From assembly GCA_963662575.1 (NCBI GenBank), contig OY759723.1, positions 2,696,340-2,760,339 of the forward strand: DNA of 64,000 nucleotides. Reading direction: 5' to 3'. The translations under genes were made by a program, and so were the position numbers. Positions 4,759 through 56,119 of the stretch are shown in pieces. Below the pieces are notes generated by a model that was given only the letters and a program-made list of their open reading frames with translations, was not told the DNA's origin and ran no database searches. Origin of the DNA: Caldilineaceae bacterium (GTDB taxonomy: Bacteria > Chloroflexota > Anaerolineae > Caldilineales > Caldilineaceae). Within the stretch, counting starts at the first letter, position 1, and every line of letters starts with the position of its first letter.

Positions 4759-4859
4759 CCGCAAAGCGCCTGCATCGGAGGACCATGCCCGGCGTCCCCG
4801 CGATTTTCATCGGGCTGACAGGACATGTACAAACTCCCAACCCTCCCCAGGAGATAGAG

Positions 4860-5651
4860 ATGAAGATTCTTATCACCGGCATCACCGGCAAGATTGGCCG
4901 CTACCTGGCGCCGTTACTTGCCCGCGACCATGAGGTCTCTGGCATTGACATTCTCCCCTCGGACTGGCCCAGTTCTACCCAGGCCGACCTCTGCGACGCC
5001 GACGCGCTGCCGCCCGTCTTCGAGGGCATGGACGTGGTCATCCATCTGGCTGCCGACCCCCGCCACGAGGTCGAGATCGGCTGGGATGAGCTGACCAACC
5101 CCAACCTGATCGCCACGGCCAGAATGTACGACGCGGCTCACGATGCCGGTGTGGGGAGGGTCATCTTCGCGAGTTCGATGCACGTCATGGGCGCATACGA
5201 GTGGGATGAGCCGTACTTCTCCATCCTTTGCGGCCGCCACGACGGCCTGGACCCGGCCGCCATCCCACTGGTCAAAGGGGATGATCCGGGCAGGCCGGAC
5301 AGCCGCTACGGCGCCACTAAGATATTCGGCGAGTCGTTGGGCCGCTATTACACCGAGGGCGGCAACATCGACCGCCCTGAAGAGCGTCCGATGGAGGTCA
5401 TCTGCGTCCGTCTTGGCACGCTGCCGGCCTCCGATCGTCCCGGTGGTGACTATCGCTCGCTGGTGAGCTGGTTCAGTTATCGCGATGCGGGCGGCTTCTT
5501 TCGGGCCTGCGTTGAGCGGCCTGGCATCAGCTATGAGATCATCTACGGCGCGTCCAACAATAAGTGGAAAATTTACGACACGCCCTACGCGTGGGAGCTG
5601 CTGGACTTCATGCCCGTCGACAGGGCGGAAGACCACTGGCGCAAAGAGTAA
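4860..5651 (+). CDS. Short NAD(P)-dependent SDR (epimerase/dehydratase-like), cassette copy 1
   Basis: MKILITGITGKIG (GxxGxxG) and SRYGATK (YxxxK). The true ATG at 4860 follows CAGGAGA; the upstream extension of ORF 4785 was rejected. Confidence 0.85.
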   Translation: MKILITGITGKIGRYLAPLLARDHEVSGIDILPSDWPSSTQADLCDADALPPVFEGMDVVIHLAADPRHEVEIGWDELTNPNLIATARMYDAAHDAGVGRVIFASSMHVMGAYEWDEPYFSILCGRHDGLDPAAIPLVKGDDPGRPDSRYGATKIFGESLGRYYTEGGNIDRPEERPMEVICVRLGTLPASDRPGGDYRSLVSWFSYRDAGGFFRACVERPGISYEIIYGASNNKWKIYDTPYAWELLDFMPVDRAEDHWRKE

Positions 5652-5701
5652 CCGACATCGCCCCGCCTACACCGCGGCGCAACACGGGAGGACAACCGAT
5701 C

Positions 5702-6598
5702 ATGACAGTTGGAGAAGGCGATTTTCGCTACGAACTGGACGATTCCTGGCCGATACTGCCAGAAGGATGGTCGCTCGGCTCTGTGCCCGATCTGGCGATC
5801 GATTCGCGGGATCGCGTCTTTGTCTTCTGCCGCCATAAACATCCCGTCGTCGCCTTTGAGGCGGAGACCGGGAAATTCATCACCTCCTGGGGTGAAAATG
5901 AATTCACTGAGCCGCACGGCATCTTCATCGACGCCGACGACTACGTGTGGGTCACCGACCGGCAGGAGCACGTGGTCACCAAGCACACGCAGCATGGTGA
6001 GAAACTGCTCGAACTGGGCCGCCGCGGCTGGGCCATGATGACGGTGACGCCCTACGGCACCTCCTTGGACCCGCCCTTCAACATGCCGGCCGGCGTGGCC
6101 ACCGCCGAGGACGGTTGCATCTTCGCGGCCGACGGCTACGGCAACCGCCAGGTCCACCGCTTTTCCGCGGAGGGCGAGCTGGAAGTGTCGTGGGGGACGT
6201 CCGGCCTGGAGCCGGGCCAGTTCGCGCTGGTACACAATATCGGCATCGACACGCAAGGCCGGGTTCTTATCTGCGACCGCGAGGCCAACCGCATCCAGCT
6301 CTTCGATCGCGATGGGAATTTCATTACTATGTTTGAAGATGTACACCGGCCTGGCGACGTGTACTGCAGCCCCGACCAGTTCGTCTATGTCGCCGAACAG
6401 GGCAGCGCATTTGGCAAGGGGCCTCTCCCCTGCGGCATCTCCATCTTCCATGAATCGGGCGAGCTGGTCTGCCGCTTCCGCGGCCCCGAAACTGGACTGC
6501 GCATGCCGCACGGCATCTGGTGTGATTCGAAAGGAAACATCTTTGTGGCCGAGCTGGGCGAAGAAGGCAACCGTGCGCGCAAGTTTGTCAAAGTGTGA
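5702..6598 (+). CDS. NHL-repeat six-bladed beta-propeller resembling peptidyl-alpha-hydroxyglycine alpha-amidating lyase (PAL), cassette copy 1
   Basis: Motifs PHGIFID, DGYGNRQVHRF, PGQFALVHNIGID, CDREANRIQLF and MPHGIWCD. ATG at 5702 inside ORF 5564. No signal peptide. Confidence 0.75.
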   Translation: MTVGEGDFRYELDDSWPILPEGWSLGSVPDLAIDSRDRVFVFCRHKHPVVAFEAETGKFITSWGENEFTEPHGIFIDADDYVWVTDRQEHVVTKHTQHGEKLLELGRRGWAMMTVTPYGTSLDPPFNMPAGVATAEDGCIFAADGYGNRQVHRFSAEGELEVSWGTSGLEPGQFALVHNIGIDTQGRVLICDREANRIQLFDRDGNFITMFEDVHRPGDVYCSPDQFVYVAEQGSAFGKGPLPCGISIFHESGELVCRFRGPETGLRMPHGIWCDSKGNIFVAELGEEGNRARKFVKV

Positions 6599-6794
6599 AG
6601 CGAGTAGGTGCGAAGCGCGGGCTGTCAATAGCATGAGAGCGCCGCTTCCCCTGTCGAAAAAAGCGATCTGGCGGTCGCGACGGGGGGAGGACGGAATTGC
6701 TATCTGCTGGTCCTGACCTTCGTTGGCGAATCCAAAATGATATCGCAAGAAACCGGCATATAAATAGGATGATACGCCCACCAGGAGACAATCT

Positions 6795-7586
6795 ATGAAA
6801 ATTCTACTCACCGGCATCAGCGGTACAGTCGGCAGCTTGCTGGCGCCCGAACTTGGTCGCGACCACGAAGTGTCCGGCGTGGACCTGCGTCCCTCCGACT
6901 GGCCGAACGCGACGCAGGCCGACCTCTGCGACCCGGACGCCCTGCCCCCCATCTTCGAAGGCATCGACGTAGTCGTCCACCTGGCCGCTGACCCGCGGCA
7001 CGAGGTCGAAATCGGCTGGGAAGAGCTCACCAACCCGAATCTGATCGCCACCGCGCGCATGTACGACGCTGCCCATGACGCGGGCGTGCGTCGGGTCATC
7101 TTCGTCAGCTCGATGCACACAATGGGCGGTTACGAGTTTGACGAGCCTTACTTGTCGATCGTTTCCGGCCGCGTGGACGGCCTCGACCCGGCCTCCATTC
7201 CCCTGGTCAAGGGCGATGACCCGGCCAGGCCGGACAGCCGCTACGGGGCGACCAAGATATTCGGCGAGTCCCTGGGCCGCTACTATACCGAGGGCGGCAA
7301 CATCGACCGCCCTGACGAGCGCCCGATGGAGGTCATCTGTGTACGGCTTGGAACGTTGCCCCGGTCCAACCGGCCTGAAAAGGACTACCGTTCGCTGGTG
7401 AGCTGGTTCAGCCGGCGCGACGCGGTCGGCTACTTCCGGGCCTGCGTTGAGCAACCCGGCATCAACTATGAGATTATCTACGGTGCATCCAACAATACGT
7501 GGAAAATCTATGACACACCCTACGCCTACAATCTGTTGAATTTCGTTCCTCAAGACAACGCTTCAGAACACTGGGGCAAGGAATAA
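6795..7586 (+). CDS. Short NAD(P)-dependent SDR (epimerase/dehydratase-like), cassette copy 2
   Basis: Paralog of 4860-5651 with the same GxxGxxG and YxxxK motifs. Confidence 0.85.
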   Translation: MKILLTGISGTVGSLLAPELGRDHEVSGVDLRPSDWPNATQADLCDPDALPPIFEGIDVVVHLAADPRHEVEIGWEELTNPNLIATARMYDAAHDAGVRRVIFVSSMHTMGGYEFDEPYLSIVSGRVDGLDPASIPLVKGDDPARPDSRYGATKIFGESLGRYYTEGGNIDRPDERPMEVICVRLGTLPRSNRPEKDYRSLVSWFSRRDAVGYFRACVEQPGINYEIIYGASNNTWKIYDTPYAYNLLNFVPQDNASEHWGKE

Positions 7587-7600
7587 CAGGAGGTCTACCA

Positions 7601-8479
7601 ATGCTGACCGTTGGACATGGCGATTTTCGCTTCCAGCAGGACGATACCTGGCCCACTCTGCCAGAAGGGTGGATTATGGATCATCCTTCCGGTATTGCGG
7701 TTGATTCGCACGATCGGGTCTATGTATTTAATCGCAACAAGCACCCAATGATCGTCTTCGAGGCCGACACTGGTGAGTTTGTTACATCCTGGGGCGAAGG
7801 CGAATTCAAGGAGCCGCACGGCATCTTCATCGACGACGAAGACCATGTTTGGACCACTGACCGCAATGACCACACCGTCGTCAAGTACACGCGCTACGGC
7901 GAGAATCTGCTCGAACTGGGCACGCGCGGCTGGGCCAATATGACGGTAACGCCGCAGGGCACGACGCTCGATCCGCCGTTCAACATGCCGGCCGGCGTAG
8001 CCATCGCCGAGGACGGCTGCATCTTTGTTGCCGACGGTTATGGCAACCGGCAGGTTCATCGTTTCTCAGCGGGAGGCGAATTGGAGCTCTCGTGGGGAAC
8101 GTCGGGGACGGAGCCGGGTCAGTTCGCGCTGGTGCATAACATCGGCATCGACACGCAGGGGAGAGTACTGGTATGTGACAGGGCAAACCATCGCATTCAG
8201 TTTTTCGACCACGAAGGGCAGTTCATTCAGATCTGGGACGATGTCCAAGCACCAGGCGGTGTCTACTGCAGTCCCGAGGGCGTGATCTACGTCGCCGAAC
8301 AGGGCGGTGGTGGTTCCGTCTCGATCTTCAGTGAAGACGGCGAACTGATTTGCCGCTTTACCGGCGAGAAAGCCGGCCTGCGCGGTGTGCACAGCGTCTG
8401 GATCGATTCGAAGAAGAACCTCTTCATTTCGGAGCTGAGTCACCACGGTCATTGTGTGCAGAGATATGCCAAGATCTAA
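7601..8479 (+). CDS. PAL-like NHL beta-propeller, cassette copy 2 (most diverged copy)
   Basis: PHGIFID, DGYGNRQVHRF, VHNIGID and DRANHRIQFF are retained, but the last motif is GVHSVWID instead of MPHGIWCD. 292 aa. AGGAGG RBS. Confidence 0.75.
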   Translation: MLTVGHGDFRFQQDDTWPTLPEGWIMDHPSGIAVDSHDRVYVFNRNKHPMIVFEADTGEFVTSWGEGEFKEPHGIFIDDEDHVWTTDRNDHTVVKYTRYGENLLELGTRGWANMTVTPQGTTLDPPFNMPAGVAIAEDGCIFVADGYGNRQVHRFSAGGELELSWGTSGTEPGQFALVHNIGIDTQGRVLVCDRANHRIQFFDHEGQFIQIWDDVQAPGGVYCSPEGVIYVAEQGGGGSVSIFSEDGELICRFTGEKAGLRGVHSVWIDSKKNLFISELSHHGHCVQRYAKI

Positions 8480-8824
8480 CTGCGGGAAGTGCCGAGCCAG
8501 CCAGTCGGCATCCTGAGAGCGCGGCCTCCTACTGTTGAGCGAAGCTATGGCAGACCGAGATGGGGGGGTTGCCCCGCCTGACCAGGCAGGGGTGAGACGG
8601 AAACGCGCCCGCACTTTGCAGACACGCCAGACCTATCTATCTCGCAGGCAATGCGGGGTCGTGAATGTGCCAGAATCCCAAGAGTCCTGGCTCAGGCTAC
8701 GGCTGCACGACGCATCCGGAGACAGCCTCTGCATCGCAGCCGATCCGCCGGCAGATGGCGCACACGCCCAGAGACAGAAAGTGACTCACCGCCCCATATT
8801 GGGTATATGGTATTTTTCGCGCGC

Positions 8825-8853
8825 TTGACATCGCTGTAATTCCTATGGATAAT
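8825..8853 (+). promoter_or_regulatory. Near-consensus sigma70-like promoter (TTGACA-N17-GATAAT) about 30 nt upstream of cassette copy 3
   Basis: Read directly in the 403-nt spacer between copy 2 and copy 3. Confidence 0.4.
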
Positions 8854-8882
8854 TCACTCAAAACCCCCTGCAGGAGACAGTC

Positions 8883-9674
8883 ATGAAAATTCTCATCACC
8901 GGCATCACCGGCACGATCGGAAGTTTCCTGGCGCCTGAATTAGCGCGCGACCACGATGTATACGGCATCGACCTTCTGCCCTCGGACTGGCCCAACTCCA
9001 CCCAGGCCGACCTCTGCGACCCGGGCGCGCTGCCGCCCGTCTTCGAAGGCATGGACGTGGTCATCCATCTGGCTGCAGACCCCCGCCATGAGGTCGAGAT
9101 TGGCTGGGATGAACTGACCAACCCCAACCTGATTGCCACTGCCCGCATGTACGACGCGGCCCACGACGCCGGTGTGCGCCGGGTTATTTTCGCCAGTTCG
9201 ATGCACGTAATGGGCGGTTATGAGTTTGACGAGCCGTACCTGTCAATCGTTTCAGGCCGCCTTGACGGCCTGGACCCGGCCTCCATTCCACTGGTCAAAG
9301 GTGATGATCCTGGCAGGCCGGACAGCCGCTACGGCGCCACCAAGATCTTCGGCGAGTCTTTGGGCCGCTACTACACCGAGGGCGGCAACATTGACCGCCC
9401 TGACGAGCGCCCGATGGAAGTCATCTGCGTCCGCCTTGGCACACTGCCGCCATGGAACCGGCCCGGCAGTGGCTACCGTTCGCTGGTGAGCTGGTTCAGC
9501 CATCGCGATGGGGCAGGATTCTTTCGCGCCTGCGTTGAACGGCCCAACATAAACTACGAGATCATTTACGGCGCATCCAACAATACCTGGAAGATCTACG
9601 ACACGCCCTACGCCTGGGAGCTGCTGGATTTCATGCCTGTTGACAGCGCCGACGACCACTGGCGTAAGGAGTAA
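8883..9674 (+). CDS. Short NAD(P)-dependent SDR (epimerase/dehydratase-like), cassette copy 3
   Basis: Paralog of 4860-5651, roughly 30 differences in 263 aa by eye. Confidence 0.85.
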   Translation: MKILITGITGTIGSFLAPELARDHDVYGIDLLPSDWPNSTQADLCDPGALPPVFEGMDVVIHLAADPRHEVEIGWDELTNPNLIATARMYDAAHDAGVRRVIFASSMHVMGGYEFDEPYLSIVSGRLDGLDPASIPLVKGDDPGRPDSRYGATKIFGESLGRYYTEGGNIDRPDERPMEVICVRLGTLPPWNRPGSGYRSLVSWFSHRDGAGFFRACVERPNINYEIIYGASNNTWKIYDTPYAWELLDFMPVDSADDHWRKE

Positions 9675-9725
9675 CTTTTACCCCTGCGCGCCGCGGCTGC
9701 GCGCCACATCGGAGGACAACAGATT

Positions 9726-10622
9726 ATGACTGTTGGATATGGCGATTTTCGCTATGAACTGGACGATTCCTGGCCGAAAGTGCCAGAAGGATGGTTGCTC
9801 GGTTCGGTGCCCGACGTGGCGATCGATTCGCGCGACCGCGTCTTTGTCTTCTGCCGCCACAAGCACCCGGTGGTGGCGTTTGAGGCTGATACCGGAAAAT
9901 TTATCACGTCCTGGGGTGAGGGTGAATTCACCGAGCCGCACGGCATCTTTATCGACGCTGAGGACCATGTGTGGGTCACCGACCGGCAGGAGCACGTTGT
10001 CACCAAGCACACGCAGCACGGTGAAAAGCTGCTCGAACTGGGCCGCCGCGGCTGGGCCATGATGACGGTGACGCCCTACGGCACGACCCTGGATCCGCCC
10101 TTCAACATGCCGGCCGGCGTGGCCATTTCCCAAGACGGCAGCATTTTCACCGCCGACGGTTATGGTAACCACCAGGTCCATCGTTTCTCGGCGGAGGGTG
10201 AGCTTGAGTTGTCCTGGGGGACCTCCGGCACCGGGCCGGGACAGTTCGCGCTGGTGCACAATATTGGCATCGACACGCAGGACCGGATCCTGATCTGTGA
10301 TCGAGAGTCGAGCCGCATCCAGATCTTCGACTACGAAGGGCAGTTCATCACGATGTGGGAAGACGTGAACGGCCCCGGCGATGTCTACTGCAGCCCCGAC
10401 CAATTGGTCTACGTCGCCGAGCAGGGCGGCTCGTTGGGCAAGGGCCCGGCCCCGATCGGCGTCTCGATCTTCCATGAGTCGGGCGAACTGGTCGGCCGCT
10501 TCCGCGGGACGGAGACCGGCTTGTCAATGCCGCATGGCATCTGGTGCGATTCGAAGGGAAACATATTTGTAGCGGAGCTGGGCACCGAGGGAAACAAAGC
10601 CCGCAAGTTGGTCAAGATTTAG
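9726..10622 (+). CDS. PAL-like NHL beta-propeller, cassette copy 3
   Basis: Very close paralog of 5702-6598. All five motifs are retained (PHGIFID, DGYGNHQVHRF, VHNIGID, DRESSRIQIF, MPHGIWCD). Confidence 0.75.
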   Translation: MTVGYGDFRYELDDSWPKVPEGWLLGSVPDVAIDSRDRVFVFCRHKHPVVAFEADTGKFITSWGEGEFTEPHGIFIDAEDHVWVTDRQEHVVTKHTQHGEKLLELGRRGWAMMTVTPYGTTLDPPFNMPAGVAISQDGSIFTADGYGNHQVHRFSAEGELELSWGTSGTGPGQFALVHNIGIDTQDRILICDRESSRIQIFDYEGQFITMWEDVNGPGDVYCSPDQLVYVAEQGGSLGKGPAPIGVSIFHESGELVGRFRGTETGLSMPHGIWCDSKGNIFVAELGTEGNKARKLVKI

Positions 10623-46236: not shown

Positions 46237-46445
46237 TCCCATTTTCCTGGAGCCTGCTGCAGAACCGGCACTTTCATGGGCACGGCGCGCCCTGTCGAGG
46301 GGCGCCGCGGTCGTTGTTGCCGTCCAGGTATGTCAACATGCAAGGCCTGCTATAGAGAGGAGATTAACAGTGCAGACTGTGCGTCACAGGAGGCCAGATC
46401 ACGCAGCGCGGAAGGGGATCGCTACTGCACTGCGTAGTTTGACGG

Positions 46446-46695
46446 TAACTACTAAGCCGCAAACATTGGCTGTCTTGATCAGCCCTTCATCGCCGACGCC
46501 ATTCAGACAATCTCATCGTGTATTCGTTGGCAGCCGCCAGCTTGGATGAGCCGCACGGCTGGAATCACGACGAACGGTCGCTGAGCGATGGTTTTGGAGG
46601 GGGGCGTTGCGGGGGCGCAGCCCCTGCACAAGGGAGGGCCGAAGGCCCGACCGCCAAAATGACAGAAATGAGTGTAGAGAAGTGAGGAGTGAGTG
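46446..46695. repeat. Copy A of a ~250-nt dispersed repeat with conserved GC hairpins (candidate structured RNA or MITE-like element)
   Basis: Aligns along its length with 55785-56035. The 75-nt core 46587-46661 differs from copy B by 2 substitutions and 1 indel. The core has hairpins GGGGC-NNN-GCCCC (46611-46624) and GGGCC-GAA-GGCCC (46636-46648), enclosed by TTTTGG/CCAAAA. Confidence 0.85.
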
Positions 46696-46796
46696 AGACA
46701 GCTGCACTCGCCGCGCTCAGGGTTGCGAATCAGTTGCGGCTGCCTAGCTGTGTTTGGCGTCCAATGTTAGGGCTGATTCCACTTGTGTTAAGGGCT

Positions 46797-50323: not shown

Positions 50324-52084
50324 TCACTTCGCCTCAAGCCCTCCAGTGCGGGCGCGCAGGGCGGACAGCATGGCATCCTGTTCGTTCCAGGGGTACTCCG
50401 TCTCGCCGTAGCACATGCTGCGTTCATGGCCCTTGCCAAAGGAGGCGACCACGTCACCTGCGCGGGCCATATTCGCGCCGAAGCGAATCGCCTCGGTGCG
50501 GTCCGGGACTATGGCAAAGCGGGGCGCGAGGAACTCGGCATGGGTACGGGAGGGCTGCTCGATATTTTCGACTTGCCTGCTTGTCTGCATGCTCTTCTCT
50601 GCAGCGGAGCCGGCGATAACTTCCTGTACGCCGGCTGCAATTTCCTGGTTTATGTCCGCCAGGTCTTCTGTGCGAGGATCCTCGGCGGTGATGATTGTGA
50701 AATCGGCGAGCCGCCCGCTGACCTGGCCCATGAGCCGGCGTTTGCCCTTGTCGCGCAGACCGGCGCAGCCGAAGATAGCGATCAGCCTGCCCCCATCCCT
50801 GTCTTCGCCGGCAGCTACCAGTGGGCGCAGCGTCTCCAGTGCCCGTTCCAGACTGGCGGGGGAGTGGGCGAAGTCGACGACGGCCAGAAAATCCTGGCCG
50901 GCATTCATGCGTTGCATTCGTCCTAAGACAGACGAAAGGGAGGCAACCCCGTTGCGGATCTGTTGGGGCGGGATGCCCAGCCCAAGAGTTACGGCAGCTG
51001 CGCACAGTATGTTGGACACATTGAACTCGCCGATTAGCCGGGTCTCCATCGGAATGCGACCGCCCCGCCAGACCAGATCAAAACGGGTGGCGGCGGGCAG
51101 ATACTCGATGTTACGGGCGTGCACGTCGGCGTTGGGGTCGGTTACGCTATAGGTATATAACGTCACGCCATCCACTTCAGTGCGCGCTTGTTCTGCGGCC
51201 AACGCTGCACGTAAGGGCTGGCAGCTGTTGTCGTCCAGGTTGAAGACGGCGATACGGGGCACGCCCGGTTTGGGCGCGGAGTGGAACAGACTGCGGAAGA
51301 GCAGGAACTTTGCTGCCTGGTAGGCTTCGAAAGAGCCGTGAATGTCCAGGTGCTCGTGGGTGATGTTGGTCAGGGCGGCGACATCGTAGTCGACCGCTGC
51401 CACGCGTTTCTGGTCGAGGCCGAAGCTGGTGCTTTCGATAATTGCATATTGGCAGCCCTCTGAAAGCATCTGGGCCAGAAATGCCTGCACTGTCGGCGCG
51501 TCCGGCGTGGTCACGTGCAGCCCGGTTTCCTGATCGACGCCGGCGATGCGGGCGCCGACGGTGGTGATGACGCCGACGGCGGCGGAGCGGCTGAGAATCG
51601 CCTCCAGGATCGAGCAGGTTGTGGTCTTACCGTCGGTGCCTGTCACTCCTATGACTGTATGGGCGCGGCTGGGAAAGTCATGGAACGCGGCACTGAGCCA
51701 AGCGAGGGCTTCGCGGCTGTCGGTCACCTGGACATAGGGTAGGCCTGCATCCTGCGGCCACCAGCCCTGTTCTTTCAGCCAGGCGAGCGGATGGCTGCCA
51801 ACGACAGCGGCGGCGCCGGCGGAAACAGAATGGGGAATAAAGCGATGACCGTCGAGTTGCAGGCCCGGTACCGCTACGAAAAGCGTATCGGGGCCGACTT
51901 CGCGGCTGTTGTCGGTGATGCGGCGCACGGCAACGGCAGGCGCAGGTGCAACGCCGGGAAGGCGGAGTCTGTGCGGGAGTCGCGCTAGCAGGGTTGCCAG
52001 CGGTCGTTCACCGTCATTTACGTGTGTGGATACTCGGGCGGCCTCGGTAGCTGACTGTTCCGCCTTCGGGGCGTCCGCCGTCAT
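50324..52084 (-). CDS. murE: UDP-N-acetylmuramoyl-L-alanyl-D-glutamate--diamino acid ligase MurE (amino-acid specificity not assignable)
   Basis: [15 protein letters not shown]...[26 protein letters not shown] at 52084 overlaps the upstream stop as ATGA; the longer ORF start at 52174 was rejected. Confidence 0.9.
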
Positions 52085-53871
52085 AGCTCGTCGGTTCCGG
52101 AGTTTCCGTCGCGCGCCACCGAGACTCCGGCGACCAGAAGCAGCAGGAAGAAGACCGCCGCGCCCCCAACCCAAATCGGCGGTATCCGGGTGAGGCTATC
52201 GTTGACATTTCCGGAACTGACAGCGGTGGAGGTCGAAGTCGGCGGTGGTTGCTCTCCGTCGTCGCTCGCGGTAGGCGTGCTGGTTGGCATGTCGTCGGTC
52301 GCGGGAGGAGATTGCAGAGTTGCGGTACCGGAAGCCGGCGGAATTGGTGTCGCGGTCGGCGTATCCGTTGCCGTTGGCGTATGGGTAGGCGCATTAGGAT
52401 CCGGCGTCGGGGTCGGCGTACATGCGACAGTTGGCGTAGCGATTGGCGCATTGGGATTCGGCGTTGCGGTCGGTGTGCCTGTGACTGTTGGCGTCGCGGT
52501 CAGCGTATTGGGATCCGGCGTCGCGGTCGACGTTCCTGTGACTGTTGGCGTCGCGTGAGGTGCGTGGGTATCGTGCATGGCGGAAAGCGTACATTCGTCC
52601 GTTGGCGTCGCGGTTGGCGCGTTGGGATCGTGGGTCGGGGTGGCGGTTGGCGTACTGGTGGGCACACTGGGATCGTGCGTGGCGGTGACGGTTGGCGTCT
52701 CGGTAGGAAGCGTCGTTGCAGTTGCGGTCGGTGAAACTGAAGGGGTGGAGGTTGGAGCCCTGGGCAACTCGGCCGGATCCAAAGGTGTAATTTGCGCCGA
52801 CGAAAGGAAGGAGAAGCCGCTGTCGAGGGTACGCAGCACGCCGTCCTGCTCGGTGCCGGCGTAGGTGACGCCGACGAAGGTGGACGAGGAAGCCAGACGG
52901 AAAACGGGATTGGTATAGGCGGCGCCATTGACGGACACGCGCGTCCAGTCCGGTACACCTTCGGCCCACAGACCGACATTGGTGCCGACGACGACTTCCT
53001 GGCCACTGACGGTCAGGTCGTAGATGACGACACCGGCGGGGAAGGAGGGATCCTGCAGCCAGTTGTAGCCGTCATCGCTCAGGTACAGGCCGGAGGCGAA
53101 GGTGCCTACATATAAGCGGCCATTCAGCATTGTCATGCCGCGGGCGATGATGCCTGGAGGCAAGTTTACCCGTTCCCAACTGACGGCTGATGGCGTCAGG
53201 CGCCAGACGCCGTCATGTGTGCCGGCATAGAGGGCACCGTCTTTATTTGCAAAGGCGCGCACGCGCAGGGCGCTCCCGGTCAGGCCTTCGCCGTACCACT
53301 CCCAGTTCAGGCCGCCGTCAAAGCTGCGAACTACACCGTCAAAGCGGGTGCCAGCGTAGAAGACGGTCTGTCCGTCCTCGACGCGGGTGAATAGGCGGCC
53401 AACGCCGCTGCTGGGGGTGAGTACCTGGTTGATCGAAGGTTCTTGCCGCCAGGTCAGGCCCCCGTCCTCACTAATGAACAGATGGCCGACACCGCCGTCC
53501 GCGGCCAAGACCCGGTTCCCATCCTGCGGATCGAAACGAATTGAAGCGACAGAGGTGTCGGCAGGCAGGTCCACGCTGGCGCGGCTCCAGGTGTGGCCGC
53601 CGTCGGTGCTACGGTAGATTGCGGCCGGCACGGGCACGTTGAGTGTGCCGGCAACGACGATACTGGGATCATCGGGGGATACGTCGAGGCCGATGATGCT
53701 GTTGGAGAAAGGCACAAAGCCGGACTGGGCGAAGATCTGACCGCTGGCAGGGGCAATCAGAACTGCAAGTATGGCAAGAATCAGCCACAGTCGGTGTGAA
53801 GTCAGGGGAATCGTGAATTTGGTTGCTGGGCGGTGTTTGCCGCGCAGTTTTTGCTGGTGGCCAGCGTGCAT
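52081..53871 (-). CDS. Secreted/anchored BNR (Ycf48/sortilin-like) beta-propeller protein with a Thr/Pro-rich repeat linker and a C-terminal TM anchor
   Basis: N-terminal hydrophobic signal; BNR-like [16 protein letters not shown] and SFDGGLNW; ~180-aa PTxTPT repeats; C-terminal [21 protein letters not shown]. Confidence 0.8.
52206..52749 (-). repeat. In-frame degenerate tandem repeats encoding the Thr/Pro-rich linker (approximate bounds)
   Basis: Repeated [20 protein letters not shown] peptides and the corresponding repetitive DNA. Confidence 0.7.
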
Positions 53872-54030: not shown

Positions 54031-54353
54031 ACTGCAACTGCAACTGCAACTGCAACTGCAACTGCAACCCCTTTTGTCCACGGAGGGCCACGAAGGGCCA
54101 CGAAGGGCCACGAAGGGCCACGAAGAACTGCAACTGCAGAACTGCAACGGCAATATTTTTTATGTGCGGAGGGACGTGGAGGGTCACGGAGAACTGCTAC
54201 TGCAAGACCCTTTGTCCGCGGAGGGCCGCGGAGGGCCGCGGAGAACTGCAACTGCAGAAGGGCGACTGCAGAAGGGCAACGGCAACATTTTTGTCTGCGG
54301 AGGGCGGCGGCGAATTGCAACTGCAAGAGGTTTTGGCCACGAAGGGCCACGAA
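54031..54353 (+). repeat. Compound short-tandem-repeat array of five modules, each (A)ACTGC(A) hexamer repeats + a T-rich spacer + CG(G/A)AGGGCC(A/G) decamer repeats
   Basis: (ACTGCA)x6 perfect at 54031-54066 and (CGAAGGGCCA)x4.5 at 54081-54125. Degenerate reiterations continue to 54353. Confidence 0.9.
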
Positions 54354-54626
54354 GAATACTATTTGTTGTTCACGTAGGGCCAGGAAGGACTTTGGTTGCG
54401 GGCGCGGCAGATGAAAGGATTGGAATGGGGGAATCAGGCGGGAACGGTCCGCTTCTGACGGCAGGCGTCTTGTCTTGCTGAACTGTTTTGTCGAGATGTC
54501 AGCGGCTCCTGGTTATTCCCTTCGCATTTGATGAGTCTCCTTTTCTGAAACTTGAGATACTGGGGCTCGTTTGAGGATTAGTGACTTTGGGATGCACGCT
54601 GGGTTTCCGCTTCCAGCTGGTATTGG

Positions 54627-55769: not shown

Positions 55770-55784
55770 CTTTTAGATTCTGGT

Positions 55785-56035
55785 TAACTACTAAGCCGCA
55801 AGCAGAGCCTGTTTTGACCAACCCTTGATCCCCGCCGCGGTTCAGGCTCTCTCATCGTGTATTTGCTGGCATCAGCTACTTTGGATGAGGCGCACCGCTG
55901 GAATGACGCCGAACGGTGGGTGAGGGATGGTTTTGGACGGGGCGTTGCGGGGGCGGAGCCCCTGCACAAGGGAGGGCCGAAGGCCCGACCGCCAAAATGC
56001 AAGGTGAGCATATAGAAGAGCAAGTGGAGAGAGAA
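55785..56035. repeat. Copy B of the ~250-nt dispersed repeat
   Basis: Aligns with 46446-46695, with the core at 55926-55999. It starts 16 nt after the rbsK stop and ends about 85 nt from the stop of the convergent gene 56120-57286. Confidence 0.85.
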
Positions 56036-56119
56036 CATCTTTGCTCAATTTAGTCATATTCGTGTAGTGATTGTGGCTGGGAGGTCAGGTTCTTGGTTCG
56101 TCGTTGACAAGAACAGTTG

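Follow-up and report, generated by a model that had tools for sequence, protein, structure and literature searches.

Two dispersed repeats in a Caldilineaceae genome are probably decayed copies of an IS66-type MITE with a conserved, folded core

Overview

We found that two related repeats (copies A and B) in a 64,000-nt stretch of a Caldilineaceae genome, which we refer to as the window, are very probably decayed copies of an IS66-type MITE that has an IS66-family partner; we put the probability of this reading at about 0.88. The initial annotation of this DNA had listed a MITE-like element among several possible readings, and this one proved correct, as the family has inverted repeats, 8-bp duplications, more than 100 copies, an IS66-family partner, and empty sites in related genomes. 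Its identity as a MITE accounts for the repeat and cautions annotators against calling a small-RNA gene at these sites. As a MITE the element is ordinary; what goes beyond the ordinary is a constrained passenger module and a polarity relative to replication.

Two decayed copies in the window

Copies A and B have the same orientation and are spaced 9,339 nt apart, in agreement with the shared orientation and spacing of about 9.3 kb that had been noted initially. Their arms are 79-81% identical, which bears out an estimate by eye of roughly 70-80%, and sequence comparison confirmed that the cores differ by two substitutions and one indel, with one of the substitutions in the loop of the first hairpin (GCA vs GGA). 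A 24-mer from the core occurs exactly twice in the window, versus zero times in 100 shuffles. The unit of about 250 nt that was originally proposed was too short, having missed the right quarter of the element and its decayed right inverted end; the real lengths are 307 bp (A) and 305 bp (B). The features are as follows.

46437-46444, no strand: left target-site duplication of copy A (GTTTGACG), matching the right one (GTTTGGCG) at 7 of 8 positions; the rule in the family is 8 bp
46445-46751, plus strand: MITE copy A, 307 bp, A2 subfamily, delimited by end-to-end alignment with canonical family members
46445-46462, plus strand: left terminal inverted repeat of copy A (GTAACTACTAAGCCGCAA), the first 14 nt of which equal both ends of a 1,566-bp Caldilineaceae IS66-family IS
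46599-46656, plus strand: core of copy A, near-invariant in at least 138 copies
46602-46606/46652-46656, plus strand: helix P1 of the copy A core
46608-46616/46620-46628, plus strand: helix P2 of the copy A core (loop GCA)
46636-46640/46644-46648, plus strand: helix P3 of the copy A core (loop GAA)
46730-46751, plus strand: decayed right terminal inverted repeat of copy A (TCAGTTGCGGCTGCCTAGCTGT), 17/22 against the consensus TCAGTTGCGGCTGAGTAGTTAC
46752-46759, no strand: right target-site duplication of copy A (GTTTGGCG), which pairs with GTTTGACG
55776-55783, no strand: left flank or decayed target-site duplication of copy B (GATTCTGG), joined directly to the right flank in the empty sites of loci L108, L112, and L113
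55784-56088, plus strand: MITE copy B, 305 bp, A2 subfamily, delimited by alignment with the family; the orthologous site is empty in relatives
55938-55994, plus strand: core of copy B, with P2 at 55946-55954/55958-55966 (loop GGA) and P3 at 55974-55978/55982-55986
56067-56088, plus strand: decayed right terminal inverted repeat of copy B (GTGATTGTGGCTGGGAGGTCAG), 12/17 against the consensus right end over its last 17 nt
56089-56096, no strand: right flank or decayed target-site duplication of copy B (GTTCTTGG)

The left ends are near-intact (14/14 in copy A and 13/14 in copy B), and the right ends have decayed in both; the target-site duplication of copy B has decayed as well (5/8). Because of the state of their right ends, the window copies are probably relics that can no longer move.

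Copy B starts 15 nt past the stop codon of a gene for a PfkB ribokinase, and the other flanking genes in the window encode a BNR-repeat protein, a short-chain dehydrogenase, and a 193-aa protein without a family. The initial annotation had drawn attention to the location of both copies past the stops of minus-strand genes, but this is incidental, since related genomes keep the gene pair without the element. These genomes have a ribokinase 88-89% identical to the one in the window, followed by the BNR-repeat gene after a 20-bp spacer. In loci L108, L112, and L113, where the ribokinase is 93-97% identical, the copy B site is uninterrupted and reads …TTTCTGG directly followed by TTCTTGGGTTCG; the site is empty in loci L110 and L111 as well. 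At locus L109, in another genome, an element has inserted independently and in reverse orientation downstream of this ribokinase gene.

A MITE family in the Caldilineaceae

We scanned one genome per prokaryotic species for an exact 19-mer of the core, which returned at least 107 stretches; all of the matches listed were in nine MAGs of the Caldilineaceae (Chloroflexota), and there were none in viral contigs, plasmids, or phages. Counting further copies, as had been suggested at the outset, gave at least 138 full cores in 0.85 Mb of sampled loci from these nine MAGs, a sample that is enriched for intact cores by its collection through the exact 19-mer. Each of two closed chromosomes has at least 28 copies. 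As far as sampled, the family is restricted to the Caldilineaceae among the matches listed, with dozens of copies per genome.

When 119 copies were oriented and stacked, a near-invariant block of about 58 nt appeared between variable flanks. Inspection of the copy ends, also suggested initially, revealed terminal inverted repeats and 8-bp target-site duplications. Both inverted ends are present in 35 copies, with GTAACTACTAAGCC located 168-184 nt upstream of the 19-mer anchor and GGCTGAGTAGTTAC about 100 nt downstream of it; the inverted ends are 14-18 bp long (GTAACTACTAAGCCRCA … TGYGGCTGAGTAGTTAC), and these copies measure 282-333 bp, mostly 282-307 bp. Duplications of 8 bp with at most one mismatch flank 22 of the 35 (for example GATGAAGG, CATTTATC, and GTCGAATC). 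Target sites are AT-rich and intergenic, and by gene calls from an ORF/GC3 heuristic 113 of 117 copies are intergenic. The neighboring genes are diverse (ABC permeases, oxidoreductases, sulfatases, SDRs, and others), and we found no recurrent associated protein among the 646 ORFs flanking the copies. The family therefore has the features of a MITE, namely terminal inverted repeats, a duplication of fixed length, small size, no transposase gene, and many copies, together with ends in common with an IS in the same genomes and presence/absence polymorphism at orthologous sites.

An autonomous IS66-family partner

Using the 485-aa transposase of an IS66-like IS on Geobacillus plasmid pHTA426 as a tblastn query against the collected Caldilineaceae loci, we identified a transposase homolog in locus L064 (E = 1e-66) that adjoins a perfect MITE-type end. 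The full transposase (P0121) is 495 aa long and is encoded by a single ORF that fills an IS of 1,566 bp; Pfam identified the domains DDE_Tnp_IS66, zf-IS66, and DUF6444 in it (E-values of 6.8e-41 and 2.9e-10 in the zf-IS66/DDE_Tnp_IS66 test). The same protein is encoded at three further places on chromosome OZ242287, each time inside a 1,566-bp element (loci L116-L118) with perfect 14-bp ends (GTAACTACTAAGCC / GGCTTAGTAGTTAC) and perfect 8-bp duplications (GTAGTCAG, GTTTTTAG, and CCCTGATC). Relatives of this IS in other genomes (loci L119-L122) are 1,526-1,567 bp long and behave in the same way with regard to their ends and duplications.

Members of the IS66 family have ends that start with GTAA and generate a direct repeat of 8-9 bp (PMC12898284, PMC12888890), and ISDge4, of the single-ORF ISBst12 group, has the ends GTGACTACTCAGCA / GTAACTGCTCAGCA and an 8-bp repeat (PMC12898284). 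The Caldilineaceae IS is likewise IS66/ISBst12-like, with ends starting with GTAA, an 8-bp repeat, and a single transposase ORF. The Geobacillus element itself is located at L115:14107-15741 and is flanked by the duplication GACGAGTT; its right end (GTAACTATTCAGCC, reverse strand) matches the MITE end at 13 of 14 positions, and its 485-aa transposase has the domains DDE_Tnp_IS66, zf-IS66, and DUF6444.

The 14-bp ends are identical between the MITE and the 1,566-bp IS. The A2 subfamily, which includes both window copies, shares a further 28 nt with the IS, positions 1515-1542 of the IS corresponding to positions 24-51 of the MITE in direct orientation, and the plus strand of the MITE thus corresponds to the sense orientation of the transposase. 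The core is absent from the IS. The MITE is not a simple deletion derivative of the IS that we found; the parts in common are the ends and, in A2 only, these 28 nt. From the shared ends we infer that this transposase mobilizes the MITE in trans.

Mosaic elements and tandem arrays

The family is mosaic, with one core joined to at least four unrelated left arms and to two or three right arms. About 40% of the copies have no recognizable ends and sit in tandem arrays with heptamer repeats, so the family must also multiply by a second route, for example slippage or unequal exchange. The array unit is 139-171 bp long, is repeated up to at least seven times, and is built from heptamer repeats, a "B" arm, and a truncated core (GGGGCGTTGCGGGGGCGC joined to GGAACTGCAG); the full core is found only in the last unit and is followed there by a purine-rich tail. 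The IS has also inserted into heptamer arrays, with the target-site duplications GTAGTCAG and GTTTTTAG. Many array-type copies are adjoined by REP-like hairpins of the GTAG type, which are polar in a ratio of 33:0.

Structure of the core

The conserved block (GGGGGGCGUUGCGGGGGCGCAGCCCCUGCACAAGGGAGGGCCGAAGGCCCGACCGCCC) is 58 nt long and folds into a three-way junction of the following helices.

P1: GGGCG / CGCCC, 5 bp
P2: UGCGGGGGC-GCA-GCCCCUGCA, 9 bp, with one G·U pair
P3: GGGCC-GAA-GGCCC, 5 bp

The strands of the junction (U/UU, CAAGGGA, and GAC) are near-invariant. This junction is the minimum-free-energy fold of the plus strand, both as RNA (-37.7 kcal/mol, z -2.8) and as DNA, and the fold of the minus strand is weaker (-30.7 kcal/mol, z -1.0); the G·U pair exists on the plus strand only. 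In a P2 variant (UGCGGGGGG-NNN-CCCCCCGCA), a C-G pair is flipped to G-C and the G·U pair is turned into G-C, and for P3 there are three versions, all of them perfectly paired (GGGCC/GGCCC, GGCCG-CUUG-CGGCC, and GGGCG-CUUG-CGCCC). Across 28 distinct sequences, 97.3% of pair cells are paired, versus 34-52% when the partners are slid, and three pairs show compensatory changes. The two hairpins with GCA and GAA loops that had been drawn in the initial annotation are therefore real, with compensatory changes in support of both, but the family does not conserve the TTTTGG/CCAAAA stem that was proposed to close them; the helix that it does conserve in this role is GGGCG/CGCCC. No conserved structure was seen in the 140-nt left arm (RNAalifold covariation term of +1.83). 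On the minus strand of the right arm, a weak terminator candidate can be seen by eye.

We considered several known kinds of element for the core. An Rfam scan, one of the checks initially proposed, gave zero matches in the window at the gathering threshold, and a permissive search of three copies with E-values up to 10 gave only hits at the level of chance. The junction lengths of 2, 7, and 3 nt had suggested a hammerhead, the core of which is CUGANGA … GAAA … UH; U4, G5, A6, and A14 are absent from the junction strands (UU, CAAGGGA, GAC), there was no Rfam hammerhead hit in the window or in the permissive search of copy A, and this candidate was rejected. An intrinsic terminator would have a GC-rich hairpin with a U run after it on the transcribed strand, but what follows the core on the plus strand is A-rich, and scans of copy A and the array copy L085 found no terminator. 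An ORF of eight codons 3' of the core (MQRESIEE-like) was set aside since copies without the ATG retain the purine-rich motif, which places the conservation at the nucleotide level. A tmRNA or tRNA-like element had been suspected from the minus-strand sequence …GCGGCTTAGTAG; ARAGORN found nothing, and the window has no tRNA or tmRNA. A guide-RNA scaffold of TnpB or IscB was considered for a copy beside a 388-aa minus-strand gene, which encodes the BNR-repeat protein and not TnpB. A riboswitch or gene-specific leader was rejected as well, as no gene family recurs alongside the copies.

Constraint on the core and its possible function

Among 37 full-length copies, which like the rest were gathered through the exact 19-mer, pairwise identity is 98.9% in the core (at the 19 positions 5' of the search anchor), 76-81% in the ends, and 55-60% in the arms. 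For pairs within the same subfamily, the corresponding values are 99.8% for the core, 82-90% for the ends, and 91% for the left arm. The window copies fit this picture, with decayed right ends and arms and intact cores. At one site with orthologous copies in three genomes, the left arm is 71-89% identical and the core 89-97%, compared with 75-90% for unique intergenic DNA, and all but one of the core differences are in the P2 apex or the hairpin loops. The slower evolution of the core relative to the ends and arms, together with compensatory changes in its stems, indicates that it is constrained in place and not merely young. The bias introduced by the 19-mer anchor cannot account for the lack of change at the other core positions. 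The MITE carries a passenger module that is more conserved than the transposon ends and whose stems covary.

It could be argued that the core has no function and only looks conserved through recent bursts or gene conversion. Orthologous copies whose flanking genes are 97% identical differ by a block of six changes in P2, which resembles cassette-like replacement, and this explanation would also fit the mosaic elements, in which the same core sits on unrelated left arms, and the ascertainment of copies through an exact 19-mer. We nonetheless consider it unlikely, because within subfamilies the arms have diverged by 9% and the 19 non-anchor core positions by 0.2%, and because end-decayed copies, including both in the window, retain intact cores. 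When the 0.85 Mb were searched with BLAST for diverged cores, just 19 variant full cores came up, and the majority of the fuller-length ones differ by structure-preserving changes in P2 or P3. The junction strands are almost invariant while the stems covary.

As to function, the core may act on the plus strand as an RNA structure in read-through transcripts, bound by a protein or the ribosome, and it could serve as a stable barrier or processing site in a 3' or 5' UTR. We favor this predicted role, but only tentatively. The single-stranded junction sequence AAGGGAGG is complementary to the anti-Shine-Dalgarno sequence and might pair with it. The main alternative, with which the polarity would be compatible, is that the core could work as folded single-stranded DNA on the lagging-strand template. 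A broader and more speculative proposal, which we regard as doubtful, is that the core is an undescribed one-strand module, either RNA transcribed in the direction of replication or folded single-stranded DNA on the lagging-strand template, that was seeded across Caldilineaceae genomes by the MITE and is kept by selection at each site, with its polarity reflecting its function.

Orientation relative to replication

Taking GC skew as a proxy for replication direction (8-kb blocks, elements masked), we found that the G-rich strand of the core is on the positive-skew (leading) strand in 106 of 116 copies (about 91%), copies of one locus not being fully independent in this count. On closed chromosomes, the core changes strand at about two places. 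The two window copies agree with the skew rule, being on the plus strand in a zone with a skew of +0.05 to +0.18, even though the minus strand encodes nearly all of the genes in that zone. Agreement with the skew varies with the state of the ends, as listed below.

No recognizable ends: 49/49
One end: 27/33
Both ends and a near-perfect duplication: 18/21

We considered whether co-orientation with genes, called for these statistics with the ORF/GC3 heuristic, drives this pattern. In tandem gene contexts, 42 copies are co-oriented with their neighbors vs 14 that are not, and the replication rule is stronger. Coding-strand skew is +0.094 in genes co-oriented with the element and -0.080 in anti-oriented genes, and the co-oriented genes account for only 53% of gene bases, which makes the skew a property of the strand and not of the genes. 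Where the neighboring genes are on the lagging strand, 12 of 13 copies still follow replication, and gene co-orientation was rejected as the driver.

A tendency toward the leading strand has been described for IS66, and peptides of its transposase bind the beta clamp (Gómez et al. 2014, PMC3971601); in phyla other than Firmicutes, Proteobacteria, and Actinobacteria, and hence in that of the Caldilineaceae, the same study found ISs to be unbiased in orientation. The IS copies identified here show a weaker bias (6/8, with noisy skew estimates), so a bias at insertion may not fully explain the polarity of 91-100% in the MITE. The polarity may have arisen through fork-coupled, orientation-specific insertion by the IS66-type transposase, through selection on the core, or through both. 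Should the transposase be responsible, the MITE family would offer clean natural data on fork-coupled DDE transposition among IS66 elements; should the core be responsible, this module would be a new strand-specific genomic signal or RNA motif. In a limited literature search, we did not find replication-tied orientation reported for bacterial MITEs.

Other identities of the repeat

The initial annotation had also raised a structured small RNA or a 3'-UTR element of the minus-strand genes, and more generally the repeat might be a duplicated small-RNA gene or cis-regulatory RNA element whose spread is secondary. This would be consistent with the stable plus-strand junction, the compensatory changes in P2 and P3, the G·U pair on the plus strand only, and the constraint on the core, but we consider it very unlikely. 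No Rfam family matched, even at E-values up to 10, and neither a promoter nor a terminator consensus turned up within the element when copy A and L085 were scanned. The left arm lacks conserved structure, as does the closing stem drawn initially lack conservation, and the neighboring genes belong to unrelated families. The inverted ends, 8-bp duplications, and IS partner account for the copies. Orientation tracks replication and not the adjacent gene: of the 13 copies between lagging-strand genes, 12 run antisense to their neighbors. Three lines of evidence, namely the G·U pair, the energy of folding, and the statistics on orientation, favor the plus strand over the minus-strand RNA originally envisaged.

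It is also possible to imagine that the element moves as single-stranded DNA by means of an HUH/Y1 enzyme, in the manner of REP/RAYT or the PATEs of IS200/IS605, with the core hairpins as the recognition site. The near-complete polarity, with the better-folding strand on the lagging-strand template, matches the pattern known for IS200/IS605 (PMC5027513), and the polar GTAG-type hairpins beside many array-type copies point in the same direction. However, HUH elements do not generate the terminal inverted repeats and 8-bp duplications seen in canonical copies, the partner with identical ends is a DDE element of the IS66 family, and neither an HUH gene nor any other gene recurs near the copies; we therefore hold this to be highly improbable. 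Finally, an origin of the copies as decayed pieces of a duplicated protein-coding gene, an outcome named at the outset as one that would overturn the RNA and mobile-element readings, can be dismissed almost completely. Short minus-strand ORFs of 64 and 84 aa overlap the two copies, but P3 loop lengths of 13, 14, or 15 nt across the family mean that frameshifting variants of 1-2 nt occur where conservation is highest. The reading frame is thus not preserved and the core is not coding (as the initial annotation had held in finding no conserved ORF). The flanks have no protein-family context, substitutions have no coding pattern, and nearly all copies are intergenic.

Comparison with known elements

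The interpretation of the repeats as IS66-type MITEs invites comparison with several known systems. Among them are the ISBst12-group members of the IS66 family, namely ISDge4 of Deinococcus geothermalis and the IS on pHTA426 of Geobacillus kaustophilus, which are similar in their ends (GTAACTACTMAGCC here, GTAACTATTCAGCC in Geobacillus, and GTGACTACTCAGCA / GTAACTGCTCAGCA in ISDge4) and which share with the Caldilineaceae IS the 8-bp duplication and a single ORF of about 450-495 aa with zf-IS66 and DDE_Tnp_IS66 domains. Unlike these, the window element has no transposase, and beyond the ends it has only the 28 nt in common with the Caldilineaceae IS. The Correia elements of Neisseria, ERIC/IRU, RUP, and BOX are likewise short, non-coding, multicopy, and intergenic, with inverted ends and fixed duplications; they are mobilized in trans by the transposase of an IS, and their internal sequences can act on neighboring transcripts. 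The Caldilineaceae MITE differs from them in its IS66/ISBst12-type ends and 8-bp duplication, in a core that is more conserved than the ends, and in an orientation that is tied to replication in about 91% of copies.

BrickBuilt of Porphyromonas gingivalis, a MITE with a minisatellite inside it (PMC4596501), is similar in that an internal tandem repeat expands; it differs in that the repeat unit in the Caldilineaceae includes a truncated core and heptamer repeats, with the full core in the last unit only. IS200/IS605 and REP/RAYT elements are also hairpin-rich and strongly biased in orientation relative to the fork, with the folding strand on the lagging-strand template, but they use HUH enzymes and have neither inverted ends nor duplications, whereas the Caldilineaceae MITE has both and a DDE partner. 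The Caldilineaceae element is a MITE of the ordinary kind, except for its near-invariant folded core of 58 bases and its near-constant orientation relative to replication.

Mobility and possible exchange of copies

One of the loci sampled from other genomes carries a 1,738-bp unit (L029:129-1866) that lies between two MITE-type ends and is bordered by a perfect 8-bp duplication (CTAAAAAC). Inside it are a reversed MITE copy and a gene for a PIN-domain toxin (Pfam, E 2.9e-15) with a small ORF upstream of it, and this vapBC-like passenger appears to have been moved by the MITE ends. Two copies of the autonomous IS, the 1,566-bp IS66-family element with the same type of ends, are both inserted in heptamer arrays (L116:1430-2995 and L117:1430-2995), with the duplications GTAGTCAG and GTTTTTAG around them. 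Directly downstream of both insertions are array-type copies of the core, which lack recognisable ends and are set in tandem arrays with heptamer repeats. Several MITE copies also lie in or beside heptamer arrays, and these locations hint at a target preference.

Three related genomes share a left-truncated orthologous copy that lies 3' of the ribokinase gene:

L108:4150-4300, orthologous left-truncated copy
L112:3620-3760, orthologous left-truncated copy
L114:3700-3850, orthologous left-truncated copy

The apex of P2, one of the three stems of the core, differs between these copies as a block (GGGGGC-GCA-GCCCCU vs GGGGGG-UGU/AAU-CCCCCC), despite flanking genes that are up to 97% identical. 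This combination suggests that sequence has been exchanged between copies, through gene conversion or a cassette-like replacement.

Minisatellites, REP-like hairpins and the purine-rich tail

Three loci contain minisatellites with a truncated core in every unit:

L085:6690-8000, minus strand, 171-bp units, at least 7 units
L016:6180-6770, 139-bp units, about 4 units
L037:3400-3760, units of about 120 bp, 3 units

All three arrays have a single terminal full core with a purine-rich tail, immediately upstream of a gene. A GTAG-type REP-like hairpin, GGGCAGGC-ACAA-GCCTGCCCCTAC, is recurrent next to array-type copies, and its orientation in the sampled loci is 33:0 in favour of the G-rich strand.

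L037:3330-3400, GTAG-type REP-like hairpin; also in L068, L018, L024, L063, L065, L070, L082 and L088

In copy A of the window, the purine-rich tail (46680-46709, minus strand) reads CACUCCUCAC after a hairpin on the minus strand. The match of this tail to the cyanobacterial sRNA Yfr1 (16 bits) is under the gathering score of 38, and we treat it as chance, although the motif GAGGAGTGAGGAG is recurrent in many copies.

Other repeats in the window

At 4833-10523 a unit of about 2 kb is present as three paralogous copies in tandem (70-89% identity), probably a tandem gene family. A 57-nt tandem repeat (52340-52629; 4.9 copies, 73% match) is enclosed by an ORF:

52081-53871, minus strand, 596-aa BNR/sortilin-like ORF

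GC skew is about zero across 1-40 kb and +0.05 to +0.18 across 40-64 kb, and in this high-skew part the minus strand holds almost all genes.

Short tandem repeats occur in the divergent spacer that lies 5' of the ribokinase gene:

54031-54354, (ACTGCA)x6, (CCACGAAGGG)x5 and (CCGCGGAGGG)x3, with connectors GAACTGCA between them

In other genomes, the heptamer arrays flanking array-type copies consist of GGTCAGT, GGGGTCA and TTTTTAG linked by GGAACTGCAG, and they lie on the G-rich strand in the sampled loci (50:0 and 13:0). The spacer repeats of the window are of the same kind as these arrays.
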